Shown here in pieces: positions 2,148 through 62,573 of a stretch of 64,000 nucleotides of DNA; the stretch's first letter is position 1; the number at the start of each line of letters is the position of its first letter. The notes beneath the pieces are model-generated. The model did not search any database, was not told the origin of the DNA, and saw nothing but the letters and a program-made list of their open reading frames with translations. Position numbers and translations under genes: made by a program. The stretch lies in the NCBI RefSeq assembly GCF_044647545.1, contig NZ_CP172818.1; one strand, 5' to 3'. The DNA comes from Escherichia coli (GTDB taxonomy: Bacteria > Pseudomonadota > Gammaproteobacteria > Enterobacterales > Enterobacteriaceae).

Positions 2148-3542
2148 TTGAGCCGTTTCGTTCCTCGCATTATTCCGTTTTATTTACTCTTGCTGGCGGC
2201 AGGCGGTACAGCTAACGCACAATCTACCTTCGAGCAAAAAGCGGCAAATCCCTTTGATAATAACAATGATGGTCTGCCGGATTTAGGCATGGCACCCGAA
2301 AATCATGATGGGGAAAAACACTTTGCTGAAATTGTGAAAGATTTCGGCGAAACCAGTATGAATGATAACGGGCTGGATACTGGCGAGCAGGCAAAAGCTT
2401 TCGCATTGGGAAAAGTCCGCGACGCGCTTAGTCAACAGGTTAATCAGCACGTTGAGTCGTGGCTATCACCGTGGGGAAATGCCAGTGTTGACGTCAAAGT
2501 GGATAACGAAGGACATTTCACCGGCAGTCGTGGAAGCTGGTTTGTGCCGTTACAAGATAATGATCGTTATCTCACCTGGAGCCAGCTTGGTCTTACTCAG
2601 CAGGATGATGGCTTGGTGAGCAATGTGGGCGTAGGGCAACGCTGGGCGCGCGGCAACTGGCTGGTGGGTTATAACACTTTTTATGACAACTTGCTGGACG
2701 AAAATCTTCAGCGAGCGGGCTTTGGTGCCGAAGCGTGGGGCGAATATTTGCGACTATCGGCAAACTTTTATCAGCCGTTTGCTGCATGGCATGAACAGAC
2801 AGCCACGCAGGAACAACGGATGGCGCGCGGGTACGACCTGACAGCCCGGATGCGCATGCCGTTCTATCAACACCTCAATACCAGTGTCAGCGTAGAACAG
2901 TATTTTGGTGATCGTGTTGATTTGTTTAACTCTGGTACGGGTTATCACAATCCCGTCGCGTTGAGTCTGGGATTAAATTACACCCCTGTGCCCTTAGTCA
3001 CTGTGACGGCCCAGCATAAACAGGGTGAAAGTGGCGAGAATCAAAATAACCTCGGGCTGAATCTTAACTACCGCTTTGGTGTACCGCTCAAAAAACAACT
3101 TTCTGCGGGCGAAGTTGCCGAAAGTCAGTCGTTACGTGGTAGTCGCTATGACAATCCGCAGCGAAATAATCTTCCGACTCTTGAGTACCGACAGCGAAAA
3201 ACCCTAACGGTGTTTCTGGCGACACCGCCGTGGGATCTAAAACCTGGCGAAACAGTGCCGCTGAAATTACAAATCCGCAGTCGTTACGGTATTCGGCAAC
3301 TGATTTGGCAGGGCGATACGCAGATATTAAGTTTGACGCCGGGCGCACAAGCCAACAGCGTGGAGGGCTGGACGCTGATCATGCCTGACTGGCAGAACGG
3401 GGAAGGGGCGAGCAATCACTGGCGATTGTCGGTGGTGGTGGAAGATAACCAGGGGCAGCGTGTCTCCTCCAATGAGATCACGCTAACGCTTGTCGAACCG
3501 TTCGATGCATTGTCAAACGACGAACTGCGCTGGGAACCGTAA
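2148..3542 (+). CDS. ychO: Putative invasin-like outer-membrane protein YchO (464 aa, TTG start with signal peptide)
   Basis: 464-aa ORF with an N-terminal signal-peptide-like segment (IPFYLLLLAAGGTANA); TTG start at 2148; sits between ychN and narL as in K-12. Confidence 0.75.
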   Translation: MSRFVPRIIPFYLLLLAAGGTANAQSTFEQKAANPFDNNNDGLPDLGMAPENHDGEKHFAEIVKDFGETSMNDNGLDTGEQAKAFALGKVRDALSQQVNQHVESWLSPWGNASVDVKVDNEGHFTGSRGSWFVPLQDNDRYLTWSQLGLTQQDDGLVSNVGVGQRWARGNWLVGYNTFYDNLLDENLQRAGFGAEAWGEYLRLSANFYQPFAAWHEQTATQEQRMARGYDLTARMRMPFYQHLNTSVSVEQYFGDRVDLFNSGTGYHNPVALSLGLNYTPVPLVTVTAQHKQGESGENQNNLGLNLNYRFGVPLKKQLSAGEVAESQSLRGSRYDNPQRNNLPTLEYRQRKTLTVFLATPPWDLKPGETVPLKLQIRSRYGIRQLIWQGDTQILSLTPGAQANSVEGWTLIMPDWQNGEGASNHWRLSVVVEDNQGQRVSSNEITLTLVEPFDALSNDELRWEP

Positions 3543-4193
3543 TCAGAAAATGCGCTCCTGATGCACCCATACCGCTGCTTCCACGCGAGACTTGAGCTTC
3601 ATTTTCTTCAGCATGTGCTTGACGTGCACTTTTACTGTGCTTTCGGTGATATCCAGGCGGCGGGCAATCATCTTGTTCGGCAAACCCTGGGCAATCAGCT
3701 TGAGAATATCGCGCTCGCGTGGGGTTAACTGGTTAACGTCGCGCTCAGTAGTGGCACGGTTTGCGCGCAAGCTGGCGGCCAGAACAGGCGTTAATGCTTC
3801 GCTTAATACCATTTCGCCAGCAGCTGCCTGATGTAACGCTTTCAGCAGATCTTCCGGTTCCATATCTTTTAACAGATAGCCATCCGCGCCGCGTTTCAGT
3901 GCGGTGACCACATCTTCTTCATGGTTAGAGACGCTGAATACCACAATGCGCCCTGAGAGGGACTTTTCGCGGAGTTTATCCAGCGTTTCCAGACCATTCA
4001 TGCCGGGCATATTGAGATCTAACAGGATCAGATCGGGATCAAGAGATTCCGCCAGTTCAATACCCTGTTCGCCATTACTCGCTTCGCCAACCACGGTGAT
4101 ATCTGGTGCCATACTGATAAGCTGTTTTACGCCAGTTCGCAGCATCGGGTGATCGTCGATCAGCAGGATAGTAGCCGGTTCCTGATTACTCAT
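3543..4193 (-). CDS. narL: Nitrate/nitrite response regulator NarL (216 aa)
   Basis: Minus ORF 3543-4307 contains [25 protein letters not shown]... from the ATG at 4193; receiver domain plus LuxR-type HTH; overlaps the narX stop by 8 bp. Confidence 0.95.
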
Positions 4194-5982
4194 GGGTATC
4201 TCCTTGGACGTCTGTGAAAGTTTTTTCGGGAATAAAGGTGACAACCACTTCGGTGCCACCTGATTCACGACGGCGGACGCGGCAATCGCCTCGTAAACTT
4301 TGCGCACGGTCGCGCATTATTATCATGCCGTAGTGATTGCTGCGGATGGCATTTTCAGGCACGCCGCAGCCGTTATCCTGGACGGTCAGTTTGACCTGAT
4401 TATCGTTTTGCGCCACCGTCACCACGACCTCACTCGCTTGCGAATGTTTGAGGGCGTTACTTAATGCCTCACGGGCAATTTGCAACAAGTGGATTGCCTG
4501 ATGCGAAGGCACCAGACGAGGCGGCAATTGATAATCCAGCTTCACCGGGAAGCCAAATTTGGCGCTGTACTCTTCGCAACTCGCCTCCAGCGCCGGACGT
4601 AATCCAGGCTCGGTGAGCTGCAAGCGGAATGTGGTGAGCAATTCACGCAACTGCGCCCAGGATGCATTCAGTTCGTTACGGATCTGACTTAACAGTTCGC
4701 GGCTGCTTTCTGGCAGCGCATCGCCCTGCATCTGTAAACAACTCACCTGCATCTTCATGCAAGAGAGAGATTGGGCAATAGAATCATGCAGTTCGCGCGC
4801 AATGGTGGCACGCTCTTCCATCACGATCAACTGTTGCTGACGTTCCTGATGCCGATCCAGCGCCAGCGTGGCGGTGAGTTGTTCAACCAGGGTATCCACC
4901 AGTTGTTGTTGATCATGGCTAAGATGACGCCCCTGCGGCAGGGTCGCCAGCAAAATACCGTACTGCGTATGAGAGTCAGCCAGCCGCCACTTCAGGGTTG
5001 TACCGCGATCGCCAACGGGTAATACGCCGCGCGGGCAGAGCTGGCAGCCTTTATCATCACAAGTCATATCTGGCTGGCAGGTAAACTCCTGATGATTCTC
5101 TTCATCATCAGTATCATAAACCCGCAGTTCGATATCACGTAGCAGGGTTAAATTCTGTAAGCCGTTGAGTACCGGTGACAGGCGTTCACACAGCGGGGCG
5201 CGGGAATGCAAACGGCGGTTAGCCTGCCATAAAAAAGAGAGGATCTGATTTTTATGCTCCAGCCCGGCAGTTTTCTCCTGAACCCGCTGCTCAAGTACGG
5301 CATAACTTTCGGCCAGTTCTGCAGACATATTGTTCAATGCAGTTCCAAGCATCGCCATTTCGTTGCGCCCGCTGATGTTTGCGCGTTGGGTAAAATCGCG
5401 ATGGCTGACGGCACTCGCCATTGCCAGCAGTTGCCGCCACGGTTGTAGCAGTCGCGCCCGCAACCAGATAATAGTGAACACCAGTAAAAGTGCCATAAAT
5501 ACCGCCATTACCCGATGGACCAGTACCACTGTCTCAATGCGCATTTCCGTGGTGCGGTCAAAACCAGATACCAGCTGATCAAGCCCGGCAACAAACTGGC
5601 TGACATCCGCTGACACCGTTTCGCGGTTTTGTGCACGCATCAGCGCAGGGATCAGTTCATTACGCCAGTAATCTTGTAAACCCTGTAATTGCGCCAGTTG
5701 TCCGTCTCGTTCCGCTGCTCGAGTCAACTCGGCGCTAAATGCCGTTTGTTCCATTTCTTTAATTAAGGGCTTGTCTTTCTCGCTTAATGGCACTGCCGCC
5801 AACAGACGGTAACTTTGCATGCGCAGTGATCCCGCTTTGTTGATCGCATGGGCGCTGCCCTGAACGCCTTGCACTAGCCAGCCAGAAACTGCCATCCCTG
5901 CCAGTCCAATAGCAGTAGAAAGCAACACAATAAGCGCAACCTGATTAACCAGGGTGAGCGGAGAGAGACAACGTTTAAGCAT
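4186..5982 (-). CDS. narX: Nitrate/nitrite sensor histidine kinase NarX (598 aa)
   Basis: 598-aa [37 protein letters not shown]... with HAMP and histidine-kinase regions; classic narXL arrangement. Confidence 0.95.
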
Positions 5983-6247
5983 GTAAACCTCTTCCTTCAG
6001 GCTTTAAATGAGCAATAACCTTAATGAATGTGACGATACATTCTGGAATGGCAGTATTCTCGGCTATTGGCTGAAGTATACCCATACCCGGAAAGAGTTA
6101 CTCCTTATTTGCCGCGTGGTTAGTCGCTTTACATCGGTAAGGGTAGGGATTTTACAGCACCGTGAAAAATCTCATAATTTTTATGAAATCACTGTACTCA
6201 CTATGGGTAATGATAAATATCAATGATAGATAAAGTTATCTTATCGT

Positions 6248-6261
6248 TTGATTTACATCAA
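6248..6261 (+). promoter_or_regulatory. FNR-type binding site (TTGAT-N4-ATCAA) in the narK promoter
   Basis: Sequence ttgatttacatcaa at 6248-6261 matches the FNR half-site consensus; lies about 60 bp upstream of the narK start. Confidence 0.6.
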
Positions 6262-6320
6262 ATTGCCTTTAGCTACAGACACTAAGGTGGCAGACATCGA
6301 AACGAGTATCAGAGGTGTCT

Positions 6321-7712
6321 ATGAGTCACTCATCCGCCCCCGAAAGGGCTACTGGAGCTGTCATTACAGATTGGCGACCGGAAGATCCTGCGTTCTGGCA
6401 GCAACGCGGTCAACGTATTGCCAGCCGCAACCTGTGGATTTCCGTTCCCTGTCTGCTGCTGGCGTTTTGCGTATGGATGTTGTTCAGCGCTGTTGCGGTG
6501 AACTTACCGAAAGTCGGTTTTAATTTTACGACCGATCAGCTATTTATGTTGACTGCGCTGCCTTCGGTTTCTGGCGCGTTATTACGTGTTCCATACTCCT
6601 TTATGGTTCCTATCTTCGGTGGTCGTCGCTGGACGGCGTTCAGCACCGGTATTCTGATTATTCCTTGCGTCTGGCTGGGTTTTGCCGTGCAGGATACCGC
6701 CACGCCTTATAGCGTCTTCATCATCATCTCTCTGCTGTGCGGCTTTGCTGGCGCGAACTTCGCATCCAGTATGGCAAACATCAGCTTCTTCTTTCCGAAA
6801 CAGAAGCAGGGTGGCGCGCTGGGTCTGAATGGTGGTCTGGGCAACATGGGCGTCAGCGTCATGCAGTTGGTTGCTCCGCTGGTGGTATCACTGTCGATTT
6901 TCGCAGTATTTGGTAGCCAGGGTGTCAAACAGCCGGATGGGACTGAGCTGTATCTGGCGAATGCGTCCTGGGTATGGGTGCCGTTCCTTGCCATCTTCAC
7001 CATTGCGGCGTGGTTTGGCATGAACGATCTTGCTACCTCGAAAGCCTCCATCAAGGAGCAGTTGCCGGTACTCAAACGGGGTCATCTGTGGATTATGAGC
7101 ATGCTGTATCTGGCAACCTTCGGCTCCTTCATCGGCTTCTCCGCGGGCTTTGCGATGCTGTCAAAAACGCAGTTCCCGGATGTTCAGATTCTGCAATACG
7201 CTTTCTTCGGGCCGTTTATTGGTGCGCTGGCGCGTTCTGCAGGTGGTGCATTATCTGACCGTCTGGGCGGAACTCGTGTCACGCTGGTGAACTTTATCCT
7301 GATGGCGATTTTCAGCGGCCTGCTGTTCCTGACCTTACCGACTGACGGACAGGGCGGAAGCTTCATGGCGTTCTTCGCAGTCTTCCTGGCGCTGTTCCTG
7401 ACAGCTGGGCTGGGTAGTGGTTCCACTTTCCAGATGATTTCCGTGATCTTCCGTAAACTGACAATGGATCGCGTGAAAGCAGAAGGGGGTTCTGACGAAC
7501 GTGCGATGCGTGAAGCGGCAACCGACACGGCGGCGGCGCTGGGTTTCATCTCTGCGATTGGCGCGATTGGTGGCTTCTTTATCCCGAAAGCGTTTGGTAG
7601 CTCGCTGGCATTAACGGGTTCGCCAGTCGGCGCAATGAAAGTATTTTTGATTTTCTATATCGCCTGCGTGGTGATTACCTGGGCGGTATATGGTCGGCAT
7701 TCTAAAAAATAA
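6321..7712 (+). CDS. narK: Nitrate/nitrite transporter NarK (463 aa, MFS)
   Basis: ORF 6315-7712; the known N-terminus MSHSSAPERATGAVITDWRPEDP begins at 6321. Confidence 0.95.
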   Translation: MSHSSAPERATGAVITDWRPEDPAFWQQRGQRIASRNLWISVPCLLLAFCVWMLFSAVAVNLPKVGFNFTTDQLFMLTALPSVSGALLRVPYSFMVPIFGGRRWTAFSTGILIIPCVWLGFAVQDTATPYSVFIIISLLCGFAGANFASSMANISFFFPKQKQGGALGLNGGLGNMGVSVMQLVAPLVVSLSIFAVFGSQGVKQPDGTELYLANASWVWVPFLAIFTIAAWFGMNDLATSKASIKEQLPVLKRGHLWIMSMLYLATFGSFIGFSAGFAMLSKTQFPDVQILQYAFFGPFIGALARSAGGALSDRLGGTRVTLVNFILMAIFSGLLFLTLPTDGQGGSFMAFFAVFLALFLTAGLGSGSTFQMISVIFRKLTMDRVKAEGGSDERAMREAATDTAAALGFISAIGAIGGFFIPKAFGSSLALTGSPVGAMKVFLIFYIACVVITWAVYGRHSKK

Positions 7713-7732
7713 ATCTAATATTTGATTATCCT

Positions 7733-7761
7733 TTGCGCGGCATGATGTCGCGCTTTTTTTA
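7733..7761 (+). terminator. Rho-independent terminator after narK
   Basis: GC hairpin gcgcgg-catgatgt-cgcgc followed by a T7 run (ctttttttatt). Confidence 0.6.
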
Positions 7762-7835
7762 TTCGTCATTTAGTTACAACATACTCATATTATATGGCTT
7801 ATTTCGCCGGATTTCATTAAGAGCCATTAATATGT

Positions 7836-7865
7836 TACCCATGGGGAATACTCCTTAATACCCAT
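7836..7865 (+). promoter_or_regulatory. Cluster of NarL heptamer-like sites (TACCCAT / TACTCCT) in the narG upstream region
   Basis: tacccat at 7836-7842, tactcct at 7849-7855 and tacccat at 7859-7865, about 250 bp upstream of narG, consistent with the known distal NarL-binding region. Confidence 0.5.
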
Positions 7866-7998
7866 CTGCATAAAAATCTTAATAGTTTAAATAACTACAG
7901 GTATAAAACATCTTAATTTACAGCGTGTTATGCTGTAACTGCTAATTATCCTAAAGGGGTATCTTAGGAATTTACTTTATTTTTCATCCCCATCACTC

Positions 7999-8012
7999 TT
8001 GATCGTTATCAA
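7999..8012 (+). promoter_or_regulatory. FNR binding site of the narG promoter (TTGAT-N4-ATCAA)
   Basis: Perfect ttgatcgttatcaa at 7999-8012, about 90 bp upstream of the narG ATG. Confidence 0.7.
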
Positions 8013-8103
8013 TTCTCACGCTGTTTCAGAGCGTTACCTTGCCCTTAAACATTAGCAATGTCGATTTATCAGAGGGCCGACAGGCTCCCACAGGAGAAAA
8101 CCG

Positions 8104-11100
8104 ATGAGTAAATTCCTGGACCGGTTTCGCTACTTCAAACAGAAGGGTGAAACCTTTGCCGATGGGCATGGCCAGCTTCTCAATACCAACCGTGACTGGG
8201 AGGATGGATATCGCCAGCGTTGGCAGCATGACAAAATCGTCCGCTCTACCCACGGGGTAAACTGCACCGGCTCCTGCAGCTGGAAAATCTACGTCAAAAA
8301 CGGTCTGGTGACCTGGGAAACCCAGCAGACTGACTATCCGCGTACTCGCCCGGACCTGCCAAACCATGAACCTCGCGGCTGCCCGCGCGGTGCCAGCTAC
8401 TCCTGGTATCTTTACAGTGCCAACCGCCTGAAATACCCGATGATGCGCAAACGCCTGATGAAAATGTGGCGTGAAGCGAAGGCGCTGCATAGCGATCCGG
8501 TTGAGGCATGGGCTTCTATCATTGAAGACGCCGATAAAGCGAAAAGCTTTAAGCAGGCGCGTGGACGCGGTGGTTTTGTTCGTTCTTCCTGGCAGGAAGT
8601 GAATGAACTGATCGCCGCCTCTAACGTTTACACCATCAAAAACTACGGCCCGGACCGCGTCGCTGGCTTCTCGCCAATTCCGGCAATGTCGATGGTTTCT
8701 TACGCTTCCGGCGCGCGCTATCTCTCGCTGCTTGGCGGTACTTGCTTAAGCTTCTACGACTGGTACTGCGACCTGCCTCCTGCATCTCCGCAAACCTGGG
8801 GCGAGCAGACTGACGTACCGGAATCTGCTGACTGGTACAACTCCAGCTACATCATCGCCTGGGGTTCAAATGTGCCGCAGACGCGTACCCCGGATGCTCA
8901 CTTCTTTACTGAAGTGCGTTACAAAGGGACCAAAACTGTTGCCGTCACACCAGACTACGCTGAAATCGCCAAACTGTGCGATCTGTGGCTGGCACCGAAA
9001 CAGGGCACCGATGCGGCAATGGCGCTGGCAATGGGTCACGTAATGCTGCGTGAATTCCACCTCGACAACCCAAGCCAGTATTTCACCGACTATGTGCGCC
9101 GCTACACCGACATGCCGATGCTGGTGATGCTGGAAGAGCGCGACGGTTACTACGCTGCGGGTCGTATGCTGCGCGCTGCTGATCTGGTGGATGCACTGGG
9201 CCAGGAAAACAATCCGGAATGGAAAACTGTCGCCTTTAATACCAATGGTGAAATGGTTGTGCCGAACGGTTCTATTGGCTTCCGCTGGGGCGAGAAGGGC
9301 AAATGGAATCTTGAGCAGCGCGACGGCAAAACTGGCGAAGAAACCGAGCTGCAACTGAGCCTGCTGGGTAGCCAGGATGAGATCGCTGAGGTGGGCTTCC
9401 CGTACTTTGGTGGCGATGGCACGGAACACTTCAACAAAGTGGAACTGGAAAACGTGCTGCTGCATAAGCTACCGGTGAAACGCCTGCAACTGGCTGATGG
9501 CAGCACCGCCCTGGTGACCACCGTTTATGATCTGACACTGGCAAACTACGGTCTGGAACGTGGCCTGAACGACGTTAACTGTGCAACCAGCTATGACGAT
9601 GTGAAAGCTTACACTCCGGCGTGGGCCGAGCAAATCACTGGCGTTTCTCGTAGCCAGATTATCCGTATTGCCCGTGAATTTGCCGATAACGCTGACAAGA
9701 CGCACGGTCGTTCGATGATTATCGTCGGTGCGGGGCTGAACCACTGGTATCACCTCGATATGAACTATCGTGGTCTGATCAACATGCTGATTTTCTGCGG
9801 CTGTGTCGGTCAGAGCGGGGGCGGCTGGGCGCACTATGTAGGTCAGGAAAAACTGCGTCCGCAAACCGGCTGGCAGCCGCTGGCGTTTGCCCTTGACTGG
9901 CAGCGTCCGGCGCGTCACATGAACAGCACTTCTTATTTCTATAACCACTCCAGCCAGTGGCGTTATGAAACCGTCACGGCGGAAGAGTTGCTGTCACCGA
10001 TGGCGGATAAATCCCGTTATACCGGACACCTGATCGACTTTAACGTCCGTGCGGAACGCATGGGCTGGCTGCCGTCTGCACCGCAGTTAGGCACTAACCC
10101 GCTGACTATCGCTGGCGAAGCGGAAAAAGCCGGGATGAATCCGGTGGACTATACGGTGAAATCCCTGAAAGAGGGTTCTATCCGTTTCGCTGCGGAACAG
10201 CCGGAAAACGGTAAAAACCACCCGCGTAATCTGTTCATCTGGCGTTCTAACCTGCTCGGTTCTTCCGGTAAAGGTCATGAGTTTATGCTCAAGTACCTGC
10301 TGGGGACGGAGCACGGTATCCAGGGCAAAGATCTGGGGCAGCAGGGCGGCGTGAAGCCGGAAGAAGTGGACTGGCAGGACAACGGTCTGGAAGGCAAGCT
10401 GGATCTGGTGGTGACGCTGGACTTCCGTCTGTCGAGCACCTGTCTCTATTCCGACATCATTTTGCCGACGGCGACCTGGTACGAAAAAGACGACATGAAT
10501 ACTTCGGATATGCATCCGTTTATTCACCCGCTGTCTGCGGCGGTCGATCCGGCCTGGGAAGCGAAAAGCGATTGGGAAATCTACAAAGCCATCGCGAAGA
10601 AATTCTCCGAAGTGTGCGTCGGCCATCTGGGTAAAGAAACCGACATCGTCACGCTGCCTATCCAGCACGACTCTGCCGCTGAACTGGCGCAGCCGCTGGA
10701 TGTGAAAGACTGGAAAAAAGGCGAATGCGACCTGATCCCAGGTAAAACTGCACCGCACATTATGGTCGTAGAGCGCGATTATCCGGCGACTTACGAACGC
10801 TTTACCTCTATCGGCCCGCTGATGGAGAAAATCGGTAATGGCGGTAAAGGGATTGCCTGGAACACCCAGAGCGAGATGGATCTGCTGCGTAAGCTCAACT
10901 ACACCAAAGCGGAAGGTCCGGCAAAAGGTCAGCCGATGCTCAATACCGCAATTGATGCAGCAGAGATGATCCTGACGCTGGCACCGGAAACCAATGGTCA
11001 GGTAGCTGTAAAAGCCTGGGCTGCCCTGAGCGAGTTTACCGGTCGTGACCATACGCATCTGGCGCTGAATAAAGAAGACGAGAAGATCCGCTTCCGCGAT

Positions 11101-11847
11101 ATTCAGGCACAGCCGCGCAAAATTATCTCCAGCCCGACCTGGTCTGGTCTGGAAGATGAACACGTTTCTTACAACGCCGGTTACACCAACGTTCACGAGC
11201 TGATCCCGTGGCGTACGCTCTCTGGTCGTCAGCAACTGTATCAGGATCACCAGTGGATGCGTGATTTCGGTGAAAGCCTGCTGGTTTATCGTCCGCCGAT
11301 CGACACCCGTTCGGTGAAAGAAGTGATGGGGCAGAAATCCAACGGCAACCCGGAAAAAGCGCTCAACTTCCTGACGCCGCACCAGAAGTGGGGTATCCAC
11401 TCCACCTACAGCGACAACCTGCTGATGCTGACTTTAGGTCGCGGTGGTCCAGTGGTCTGGCTGAGTGAAGCCGATGCCAAAGATCTGGGCATTGCCGATA
11501 ACGACTGGATTGAAGTCTTCAACAGCAACGGTGCTCTGACTGCCCGTGCGGTTGTCAGCCAGCGTGTTCCGGCAGGGATGACCATGATGTACCACGCGCA
11601 GGAACGTATCGTTAACCTGCCTGGTTCGGAAATTACCCAACAGCGTGGTGGTATCCATAACTCGGTCACCCGTATCACGCCGAAACCGACGCATATGATC
11701 GGCGGCTATGCCCATCTGGCATACGGCTTTAACTACTACGGCACCGTAGGTTCTAACCGCGATGAGTTTGTTGTAGTGCGTAAGATGAAGAACATTGACT
11801 GGTTAGATGGCGAAGGCAATGACCAGGTACAGGAGAGCGTAAAATGA
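8104..11847 (+). CDS. narG: Respiratory nitrate reductase A alpha subunit NarG (1247 aa)
   Basis: 1247-aa ORF MSKFLDRFRYFKQKGETFADGHGQ... with the Mo-bisMGD enzyme family signature; overlaps narH by 4 bp. Confidence 0.97.
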   Translation: MSKFLDRFRYFKQKGETFADGHGQLLNTNRDWEDGYRQRWQHDKIVRSTHGVNCTGSCSWKIYVKNGLVTWETQQTDYPRTRPDLPNHEPRGCPRGASYSWYLYSANRLKYPMMRKRLMKMWREAKALHSDPVEAWASIIEDADKAKSFKQARGRGGFVRSSWQEVNELIAASNVYTIKNYGPDRVAGFSPIPAMSMVSYASGARYLSLLGGTCLSFYDWYCDLPPASPQTWGEQTDVPESADWYNSSYIIAWGSNVPQTRTPDAHFFTEVRYKGTKTVAVTPDYAEIAKLCDLWLAPKQGTDAAMALAMGHVMLREFHLDNPSQYFTDYVRRYTDMPMLVMLEERDGYYAAGRMLRAADLVDALGQENNPEWKTVAFNTNGEMVVPNGSIGFRWGEKGKWNLEQRDGKTGEETELQLSLLGSQDEIAEVGFPYFGGDGTEHFNKVELENVLLHKLPVKRLQLADGSTALVTTVYDLTLANYGLERGLNDVNCATSYDDVKAYTPAWAEQITGVSRSQIIRIAREFADNADKTHGRSMIIVGAGLNHWYHLDMNYRGLINMLIFCGCVGQSGGGWAHYVGQEKLRPQTGWQPLAFALDWQRPARHMNSTSYFYNHSSQWRYETVTAEELLSPMADKSRYTGHLIDFNVRAERMGWLPSAPQLGTNPLTIAGEAEKAGMNPVDYTVKSLKEGSIRFAAEQPENGKNHPRNLFIWRSNLLGSSGKGHEFMLKYLLGTEHGIQGKDLGQQGGVKPEEVDWQDNGLEGKLDLVVTLDFRLSSTCLYSDIILPTATWYEKDDMNTSDMHPFIHPLSAAVDPAWEAKSDWEIYKAIAKKFSEVCVGHLGKETDIVTLPIQHDSAAELAQPLDVKDWKKGECDLIPGKTAPHIMVVERDYPATYERFTSIGPLMEKIGNGGKGIAWNTQSEMDLLRKLNYTKAEGPAKGQPMLNTAIDAAEMILTLAPETNGQVAVKAWAALSEFTGRDHTHLALNKEDEKIRFRDIQAQPRKIISSPTWSGLEDEHVSYNAGYTNVHELIPWRTLSGRQQLYQDHQWMRDFGESLLVYRPPIDTRSVKEVMGQKSNGNPEKALNFLTPHQKWGIHSTYSDNLLMLTLGRGGPVVWLSEADAKDLGIADNDWIEVFNSNGALTARAVVSQRVPAGMTMMYHAQERIVNLPGSEITQQRGGIHNSVTRITPKPTHMIGGYAHLAYGFNYYGTVGSNRDEFVVVRKMKNIDWLDGEGNDQVQESVK

Positions 11848-14947: not shown

Positions 14948-15032
<85 letters not shown>

Positions 15033-15065
15033 AGGGGTAATTCAAATTCTGAGGTAATGCTTGAA

Positions 15066-15150
<85 letters not shown>

Positions 15151-49298: not shown

Positions 49299-49330
49299 CA
49301 AAAAAAAGCCCGCTCATTAGGCGGGCTGGG
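49299..49330 (-). terminator. trp attenuator (leader terminator 3:4 hairpin)
   Basis: Minus sense AGCCCGCCTAATGAGCGGGCTTTTTTTT located between trpL and trpE. Confidence 0.9.
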
Positions 49331-49369
49331 TATCTGATTGCTTTACGCATGGTGAATACACTGCCCGTT

Positions 49370-49414
49370 TCAGGAAGTGCGCCACCAACCTTTCAGTACG
49401 AAAATTGCTTTCAT
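49370..49414 (-). CDS. trpL: trp leader peptide (14 aa, tandem Trp codons)
   Basis: ATGAAAGCAATTTTCGTACTGAAAGGTTGGTGGCGCACTTCCTGA = [14 protein letters not shown]. Confidence 0.95.
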
Positions 49415-62200: not shown

Positions 62201-62313
62201 TTATCATCATTCTTATTACCCATTTTTAATGAATTACAGGGCTTTTAATACACCGCAGCAATAACAGGTTGAGTTATCTCAACACAAAGTAATAACCGTT
62301 AAGGGTGTAGCCT

Positions 62314-62409
62314 ATGATCAACACAAATATGAAATATTGGTCCTGGATGGGCGCGTTTTCTCTGTCGATGCTCTTCTGGGCTGAACTCCTCTGGATCATT
62401 ACTCACTAA
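62314..62409 (+). CDS. Candidate 31-aa small membrane protein upstream of acnA
   Basis: ATG at 62314 preceded by aagggtgtag (weak RBS); encodes MINTNMKYWSWMGAFSLSMLFWAELLWIITH*; followed by a hairpin terminator. May correspond to a described K-12 small protein, but I cannot confirm the name. Confidence 0.4.
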   Translation: MINTNMKYWSWMGAFSLSMLFWAELLWIITH

Positions 62410-62415
62410 TCCCTG

Positions 62416-62437
62416 ACCCCGCTGCGGCGGGGGTTTT
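62416..62437 (+). terminator. Rho-independent terminator after the 31-codon ORF
   Basis: gaccccgc-tgcg-gcggggg followed by ttttcatttg. Confidence 0.65.
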
Positions 62438-62573
62438 CATTTGCTTTGCCACAAGGTTTCTCCTCTTTTATCAATTTGGGTTGTTATCAAATCGTTACGC
62501 GATGTTTGTGTTATCTTTAATATTCACCCTGAAGAGAATCAGGGCGTCGCAACCCTGTCATTAAGGAGGAGCT

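Follow-up and report, generated by a model that had tools for sequence, protein, structure and literature searches.

The interval 7830-8103 is very probably the control region and leader of narGHJI (respiratory nitrate reductase A) of an Escherichia coli strain. We assign this reading a probability of roughly 0.93, which applies to the best explanation as a whole, namely the published FNR-NarL-IHF mechanism acting at a narG control region. In the window, i.e. the whole 64-kb stretch of DNA analysed, the regulatory sites are present, non-random and identical to footprinted K-12 DNA; across Enterobacteriaceae, sites and spacing alike are conserved, a phylogenetic footprint in support of the FNR-IHF-NarL arrangement already published. 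The comparison suggests that the ancestral elements are the FNR box, the -195/-185 heptamer repeat, the IHF core, the -89 NarL site and a fixed 150-bp spacing. The architecture is already known, narG being one of the best-characterised bacterial promoters. The value of the case is that of a positive control: reading the sequence alone was enough to recover a real, multi-factor control region at its exact coordinates. Modest further detail comes from the comparative data, which separate ancestral from lineage-specific elements.

The window possesses a minus-strand open reading frame of 598 aa at 4186-5982 and further frames of 463 aa at 6321-7712 and 1247 aa at 8104-11847. RefSeq annotation of E. 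coli loci 96.6-99.7% identical to this DNA names the flanking genes narX (minus), narK (plus) and narG (plus), and on that annotation we identify the locus as narXL-narK-narGHJI and not the paralogous narZ. The narK-narG intergenic DNA was matched in 5415 of 5426 complete E. coli genomes, the region being absent from 11, with an identity of 99.7% to strain FDAARGOS_497 and 96.6% to K-12. Thirteen matches to the narG control region sit on records labelled plasmids. In E. coli FDAARGOS_943, an IS1A element (L127:3249-4169) lies between the -89 NarL site and the FNR box, splitting the NarL/IHF module from the core promoter. Rfam models found no match in the control region or leader (5900-8400 at E<=1; whole window at gathering score). 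Elsewhere in the window, gathering-score matches at 14951-15150, 49300-49393 and 62241-62444 correspond to two tRNA genes downstream of the nar operon, the trp operon leader and the small RNA STnc180. For the cross-species comparison, 120 narG loci, essentially all from Enterobacteriaceae, were retrieved from species-representative genomes with a degenerate pattern for the first 15 NarG codons; the conservation profile was ungapped and anchored on the FNR box (n=115 sequences). The elements of the control region, numbered relative to the start proposed below, are as follows.

7836-7842, plus strand: NarL heptamer TACCCAT, centre -208; exact TACYYMT match, identical to K-12
7849-7855, plus strand: NarL heptamer TACTCCT, centre -195; exact match, core of the upstream NarL footprint region
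7859-7865, plus strand: NarL heptamer TACCCAT, centre -185; exact match
7866-7950: AT-rich spacer of 85 bp (72% A+T), fixed in length and variable in sequence; candidate IHF region
7903-7909, plus strand: A-rich tract, -144 to -138; conserved A run in the cross-species profile
7918-7930, plus strand: IHF-like core TTACAGCGTGTTA, -129 to -117; 3 mismatches to WATCAANNNNTTR
7946-7961: proximal NarL site, composed of TTATCCT (plus strand), AA and a perfect TACCCCT on the minus strand at 7955-7961, centre -89
7999-8012: FNR site TTGATCGTTATCAA, centre -41.5; perfect consensus
8035-8040, plus strand: putative -10-like hexamer TACCTT
8047, plus strand: predicted transcription start (+1), derived from FNR at -41.5
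8047-8103, plus strand: narG leader, 57 nt, with the block GCAATGTCGATTT at 8056-8068, a 5-bp hairpin and the Shine-Dalgarno sequence AGGAG at 8092-8096
8104-11847, plus strand: narG coding sequence, 1247 aa, from the open reading frame list and RefSeq annotation of near-identical DNA

Perfect TTGAT-N4-ATCAA matches occur only twice on both strands of the 64 kb, as TTGATCGTTATCAA at 7999-8012 and TTGATTTACATCAA at 6248-6261 (2 observed vs 0.08 expected; two or more in 0/100 shuffles). These are exactly the narG and narK boxes that the initial annotation had proposed, and each is a perfect consensus. Myers et al., combining FNR ChIP and literature, place the narGHJI and narK FNR sites both at -41.5 (PMC3688515). 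If the centre of the narG box (8005.5) is set to this value, transcription would start at 8047; the published name of the -89 heptamer agrees independently, the centre of 7955-7961 falling exactly at -89. With this start the published geometry is reproduced, bearing out the earlier claim that the sites lie in the order expected of the narG promoter. Of about 115 species compared, nearly all have an FNR box or a one-base variant of it 100-109 bp before the ATG of narG.

Downstream, the hexamer TACCTT starts 29.5 bp past the FNR site centre, which matches the class II spacing rule for an FNR site and a -10 hexamer (PMC9314961). Both sequence hallmarks of a class II promoter are thus found here, a consensus FNR site and the appropriate centre-to--10 spacing, and the -10 region GTTACCTT is kept across species in the anchored profile. 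For K-12 narG, a mapped start and FNR-dependent anaerobic transcription are known (PMC3688515). The sigma-70 promoter/terminator scan does not call the weak FNR-dependent narG promoter; its sole standout is the narK terminator at 7735-7760, a strong intrinsic terminator with an 8-bp stem and a T run. A minus-strand hexamer pair at 7817-7789 was rejected as a promoter, such pairs being at chance level (3 found vs 3.1 expected). A 2026 Cronobacter paper places a target of the small RNA CsrN, GCGUUACCGUCCCG, in the "narG 5′ UTR" (PMC13065745). The E. coli counterpart, GCGTTACCTTGCCC, is at 8031-8044, i.e. -16 to -3, where it overlaps the -10 hexamer and lies upstream of the FNR-dependent start proposed here.

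Single NarL heptamers carry little information: TACYYMT occurs 48 times in the window vs 30.4 expected, and a comparative study found NarL sites not reliably predictable (PMC1805755). The grouping is what stands out. Three same-strand heptamers within 30 bp appeared in 0/1000 dinucleotide shuffles of the window, and the 391-bp narK-narG intergenic region holds five heptamers vs 0.54 expected, a count reached in 0/5000 shuffles. The three TACYYMT-type heptamers noted by the initial annotation at 7836-7865 are therefore genuine in position, strand and clustering; that reading nevertheless overlooked the high-affinity NarL site at -89 and included a -208 heptamer that is not conserved across genera. 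Comparison with published narG footprinting, the check proposed at the outset, gave agreement: the heptamers at -208/-195/-185 and at -89 coincide with the -195 and -89 regions protected by NarL-phosphate, as given in later literature citing the original footprints, with high affinity at -89 and lower affinity at -195 (PMC4549865).

Conservation distinguishes the three upstream heptamers. The one at -195 is perfect at a fixed position in 78/115 species and has one mismatch in 12 more; the distance from its start to the FNR box is 150 bp in 85/118 sequences and 151-152 bp in most others. The -185 heptamer is kept with at most one mismatch in 57/115 species, its TACC part being conserved, and the block TACCCCTTAATACC at -198 to -185 is strongly conserved in the anchored profile (n=115). 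The -208 position, by contrast, is matched in only 2/115 sequences. It reads CATCCAT in close Escherichia clades; the heptamer is invariant in five sampled E. coli alleles and becomes TACTCAT, still consensus, in a sixth genome labelled E. coli. This supports the view that the ancestral upstream element would be the -195/-185 direct repeat, with the -208 heptamer a probable E. coli addition of uncertain contribution. An extra heptamer, TACTCAT at 7782-7788 (~-262), was not supported as a site, the ungapped profile being without conservation upstream of -215; certain loci of Citrobacter and Enterobacter do have matches like it at a comparable distance.

The published high-affinity heptamer at -89 is TACCCCT/AGGGGTA, and the same source describes narG as having no 7-2-7 sites (PMC4549865). 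Consistent with this, the best 7-2-7 candidate in the narG control region, TTATCCTAAAGGGGTA, has 2+0 mismatches and a centre at -93.5; no consensus inverted pair is present, its left heptamer TTATCCT (-98) being degenerate with 2 mismatches. The GGTA of the -89 heptamer is kept across species, within a profile block CT..G.GGTA at about -96 to -86. In most other genera the -98/-89 pair is a near-palindromic 7-2-7 arrangement, TACCACY-NN-GGTGGTA (e.g. TACCACC-TT-GGTGGTA in Klebsiella), while the E. coli pair reads TTATCCT-AA-AGGGGTA and the left half is degenerate in both E. coli and Salmonella. By this comparison the loss of symmetry is probably lineage-specific, and the described absence of 7-2-7 sites from narG may hold for the E. 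coli/Salmonella lineages specifically.

A/T tracts are known to lie 5′ of IHF cores; here the conserved A run at -144 to -138 precedes the candidate core at -129 to -117. Zere et al., citing Schroder et al. 1993, put IHF at about -125 of narG (PMC4682653); position -125 corresponds to 7922, within the 72% A+T spacer. The initial annotation had located an IHF-induced bend in this interval. Its base composition and the position of -125 agree with that, but the consensus WATCAANNNNTTR at <=1 mismatch has no match in the narG spacer and the candidate core has three mismatches. At that threshold, matches in the whole window are no commoner than by chance (73 vs 63). The IHF-like core of the window is weak by consensus, and a consensus scan alone would not call TTACAGCGTGTTA. 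It keeps the best-conserved letters C-126, A-125, T-119, T-118 and A-117, which form a CA...TTA pattern at -126 to -117 in the anchored profile (n=115), and at -129 to -117 no more than 2 mismatches to WATCAANNNNTTR are found in 72% of 115 species vs 1.9% at other spacer positions.

Nine positions between -217 and +57 distinguish the window from K-12: eight SNPs at -137 to -105, all in the spacer (7910, 7924, 7925, 7933, 7934, 7937, 7938 and 7942), and one at -31 (8016), where the T of the window is the cross-species majority and the C of K-12 a minority state. Consequently, -104 to +57 differs at one base only. At the FNR box, every heptamer, the -10 region and the leader the two sequences agree completely, so that the locus is intact as first described, every site named there being unchanged; the window copy has essentially the K-12 sequence at every functional site. 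Two of the differences, 7924 and 7925, affect letters that the IHF core leaves unspecified (its NNNN). The eight spacer SNPs flank and enter the IHF footprint region, and the quantitative behaviour of the promoter could differ from that in K-12.

The spacer changes fast at constant length. Without a single indel, the whole 85 bp can be aligned in each of 5417 E. coli records, at identities of 80-100% to the window (>=99% in 81 records, 95-99% in 500, 90-95% in 3799 and 80-90% in 1037), and identity to other Escherichia clades is 54-73%. Spacer and narG third-codon-position identities are 90.6% and 93.2% against K-12, 80.0% and 89.8% against RMDEC465, 58.8% and 89.2% against Escherichia sp. MOD1, and 54.1% and 79.2% against E. 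albertii. Of all 85-bp segments in about 11 kb, the spacer has the lowest identity in two Escherichia comparisons; in the remaining two, ~2600-3400, which aligns poorly and with gaps, is the one stretch that ranks below it. A length that stays fixed despite 10-46% divergence is what one would expect of a bend or loop for which length and phase weigh more than sequence. The fast divergence is most simply explained by relaxed constraint on a linker for which length is important. With its fixed length and fast evolution, the spacer is a natural experiment on the amount of sequence that an IHF-bent loop requires.

The 57-nt leader behaves differently, being at least 99% identical in 5367/5417 E. 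coli records and single-copy in E. coli genomes; a leader shared with narZ was rejected on the latter ground. In an alignment of 85 distinct Enterobacteriaceae leaders the block GCAATGTCGATTT (8056-8068, +10 to +22) is nearly invariant. An upstream open reading frame from the leader ATG at 8057 was rejected as a leader peptide, neither its frame nor its length being conserved across these 85 leaders. The single-sequence fold of the whole leader is no better than shuffles (z = -0.03), while the consensus fold contains a conserved hairpin, GGGCC-GACA-GGCTC, pairing 8074-8078 with 8083-8087 just before the Shine-Dalgarno sequence. Only its five base pairs show a few compensatory changes, in Hafnia and Enterobacillus, and we do not claim a leader riboregulator. 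The 3′ arm of the hairpin (CTCC) could pair instead with the Shine-Dalgarno GGAG.

Four alternatives were weighed against the published mechanism. The motif matches could be coincidences of AT-rich intergenic DNA with no regulatory meaning; heptamers are short and exceed expectation in the window (48 vs 30), and IHF matches at <=1 mismatch are near chance (73 vs 63) with none in the spacer. Against this, the only two perfect FNR boxes of the 64 kb both lie at -41.5 of known FNR promoters, the heptamer cluster was reached in neither the 1000 window shuffles nor the 5000 intergenic ones, and sites and spacing are conserved in 115 species, in sequence identical to footprinted K-12 DNA. We consider this alternative refuted by the shuffles and the cross-species conservation. 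An equally negligible chance attaches to the idea that this DNA governs narZYWV, which encodes the paralogous and largely constitutive nitrate reductase Z, or that it is a 7-2-7 promoter responsive to NarP, like those of napF and nrfA. The two enzymes NarG and NarZ are closely related paralogues and a degenerate TTATCCT-AA-AGGGGTA is present at -93.5, but narXL/narK synteny and the RefSeq narG annotation exclude narZ, the leader is single-copy, the left heptamer has two mismatches, and narG is without 7-2-7 sites according to the literature (PMC4549865).

A far stronger competitor, to which we give slightly less than an even chance, holds that the upstream cluster is only partly functional, with an ancestral -195/-185 repeat, a recent, E. 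coli-specific and possibly dispensable -208 heptamer, and the true high-affinity site at -89. It draws on the 2/115 matches at -208, the CATCCAT of close Escherichia clades, the strong conservation of TACCCCTTAATACC at -198 to -185 and the ranking of -89 as high-affinity and -195 as lower in the literature (PMC4549865). The -208 heptamer is, on the other hand, a perfect consensus, invariant in five sampled E. coli alleles and TACTCAT in the sixth. The published NarL-phosphate protection around -195 is reportedly broad, which also counts against a partial cluster. The remaining alternative, which we regard as unlikely, sees more in the spacer than a passive bendable linker: its fast turnover at fixed length would reflect lineage-specific narG tuning or recombinational exchange of regulatory alleles. 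In two comparisons no other 85-bp stretch of the ~11 kb is as divergent as the spacer, it diverges 2-4x as much as narG third codon positions between Escherichia clades (54-65% vs 79-89% identity), and O157:H7 and Ecol_448 rank differently in similarity by spacer and by narG. The sample comprises only 85 bp, however, third codon positions do not evolve neutrally in a highly expressed gene, and relaxed constraint on an AT-rich linker suffices without selection. Similarly doubtful is a joint proposal in which the spacer divergence would reflect a nitrate-reductase induction set-point that is tuned by lineage or exchanged and GCAATGTCGATTT would be a candidate regulator binding site, both perhaps undescribed. 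If true, the several distinct spacer alleles within E. coli would represent such tuning or exchange of the set-point, and the candidate binder of GCAATGTCGATTT would be a post-transcriptional or a downstream transcriptional regulator.

The preferred reading, the FNR-NarL-IHF mechanism, would proceed as follows. In the absence of oxygen, FNR at the -41.5 site would recruit RNA polymerase to the weak -10 hexamer TACCTT by class II activation. With nitrate, phosphorylated NarL would occupy the -89 site with high affinity and, with lower affinity, the direct repeat of heptamers at -208, -195 and -185. IHF would bind the AT-rich spacer at about -125 and bend it, and this bend would bring the remote NarL complex onto the FNR-polymerase complex, raising transcription roughly 20-fold. 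These steps are those of published K-12 work; for the window, binding, bending, start and looping are taken from the literature or deduced.

The neighbouring narK promoter, on the same evidence, possesses the following elements.

6248-6261: narK FNR site TTGATTTACATCAA, centre -41.5 from the predicted narK start at 6296
6210-6223: second narK FNR site with 1 mismatch, at -79.5, 38 bp upstream of the perfect box
6079-6085, 6099-6105 and 6203-6209: narK TACYYMT heptamers at about -214, -194 and -90 from the predicted start

At the other end of narK, K-12 carries a 128-bp dispersed repeat directly after the stop codon and before the narK terminator (L001:2373-2500), and the window has the empty site at 7712-7716. 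The repeat, which looks ERIC/IRU-like, occurs in E. coli genomes at a median copy number of 10; at the narK site it is present in about 2457 E. coli records and absent, as in the window, from about 2959. In Salmonella the narK 3′ end yields the small RNA NarS (PMC7038943); Rfam gave no match at the narK 3′ end of the window. Pairing of the narK 3′-UTR (NarS) with the narG leader was rejected, 38% of shuffled leaders being as good.

Among known systems, the closest is K-12 narGp itself, which shares with the window an identical FNR box, four consensus heptamers, degenerate -98 heptamer, -10 region and leader in the same order and spacing; it differs by the eight substitutions at -137 to -105, the one at -31 and the 128-bp repeat after narK. 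The narK promoter resembles narG in its perfect FNR box at -41.5 and in heptamers at comparable distances, and departs from it in having the second, one-mismatch FNR site at -79.5 and an upstream region without the extreme divergence of the narG spacer. The nirB, nrfA and napF promoters also belong to FNR class II, and both nitrate-responsive regulators and nucleoid proteins modulate them (PMC3688515), but they possess an inverted 7-2-7 heptamer pair close to the promoter, whereas the narG sites are remote and non-7-2-7; at nirB, moreover, NarL displaces IHF (PMC3688515), while at narG IHF is a co-activator. UvrY at csrB and TodT, regulators of the FixJ/NarL family that activate from a distance with help from IHF, share with narG a remote response-regulator site, an IHF bend in between and a promoter-proximal complex (PMC4549865, PMC4682653). 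Their regulators, signals and promoter classes are different, and the likeness is one of mechanism only.
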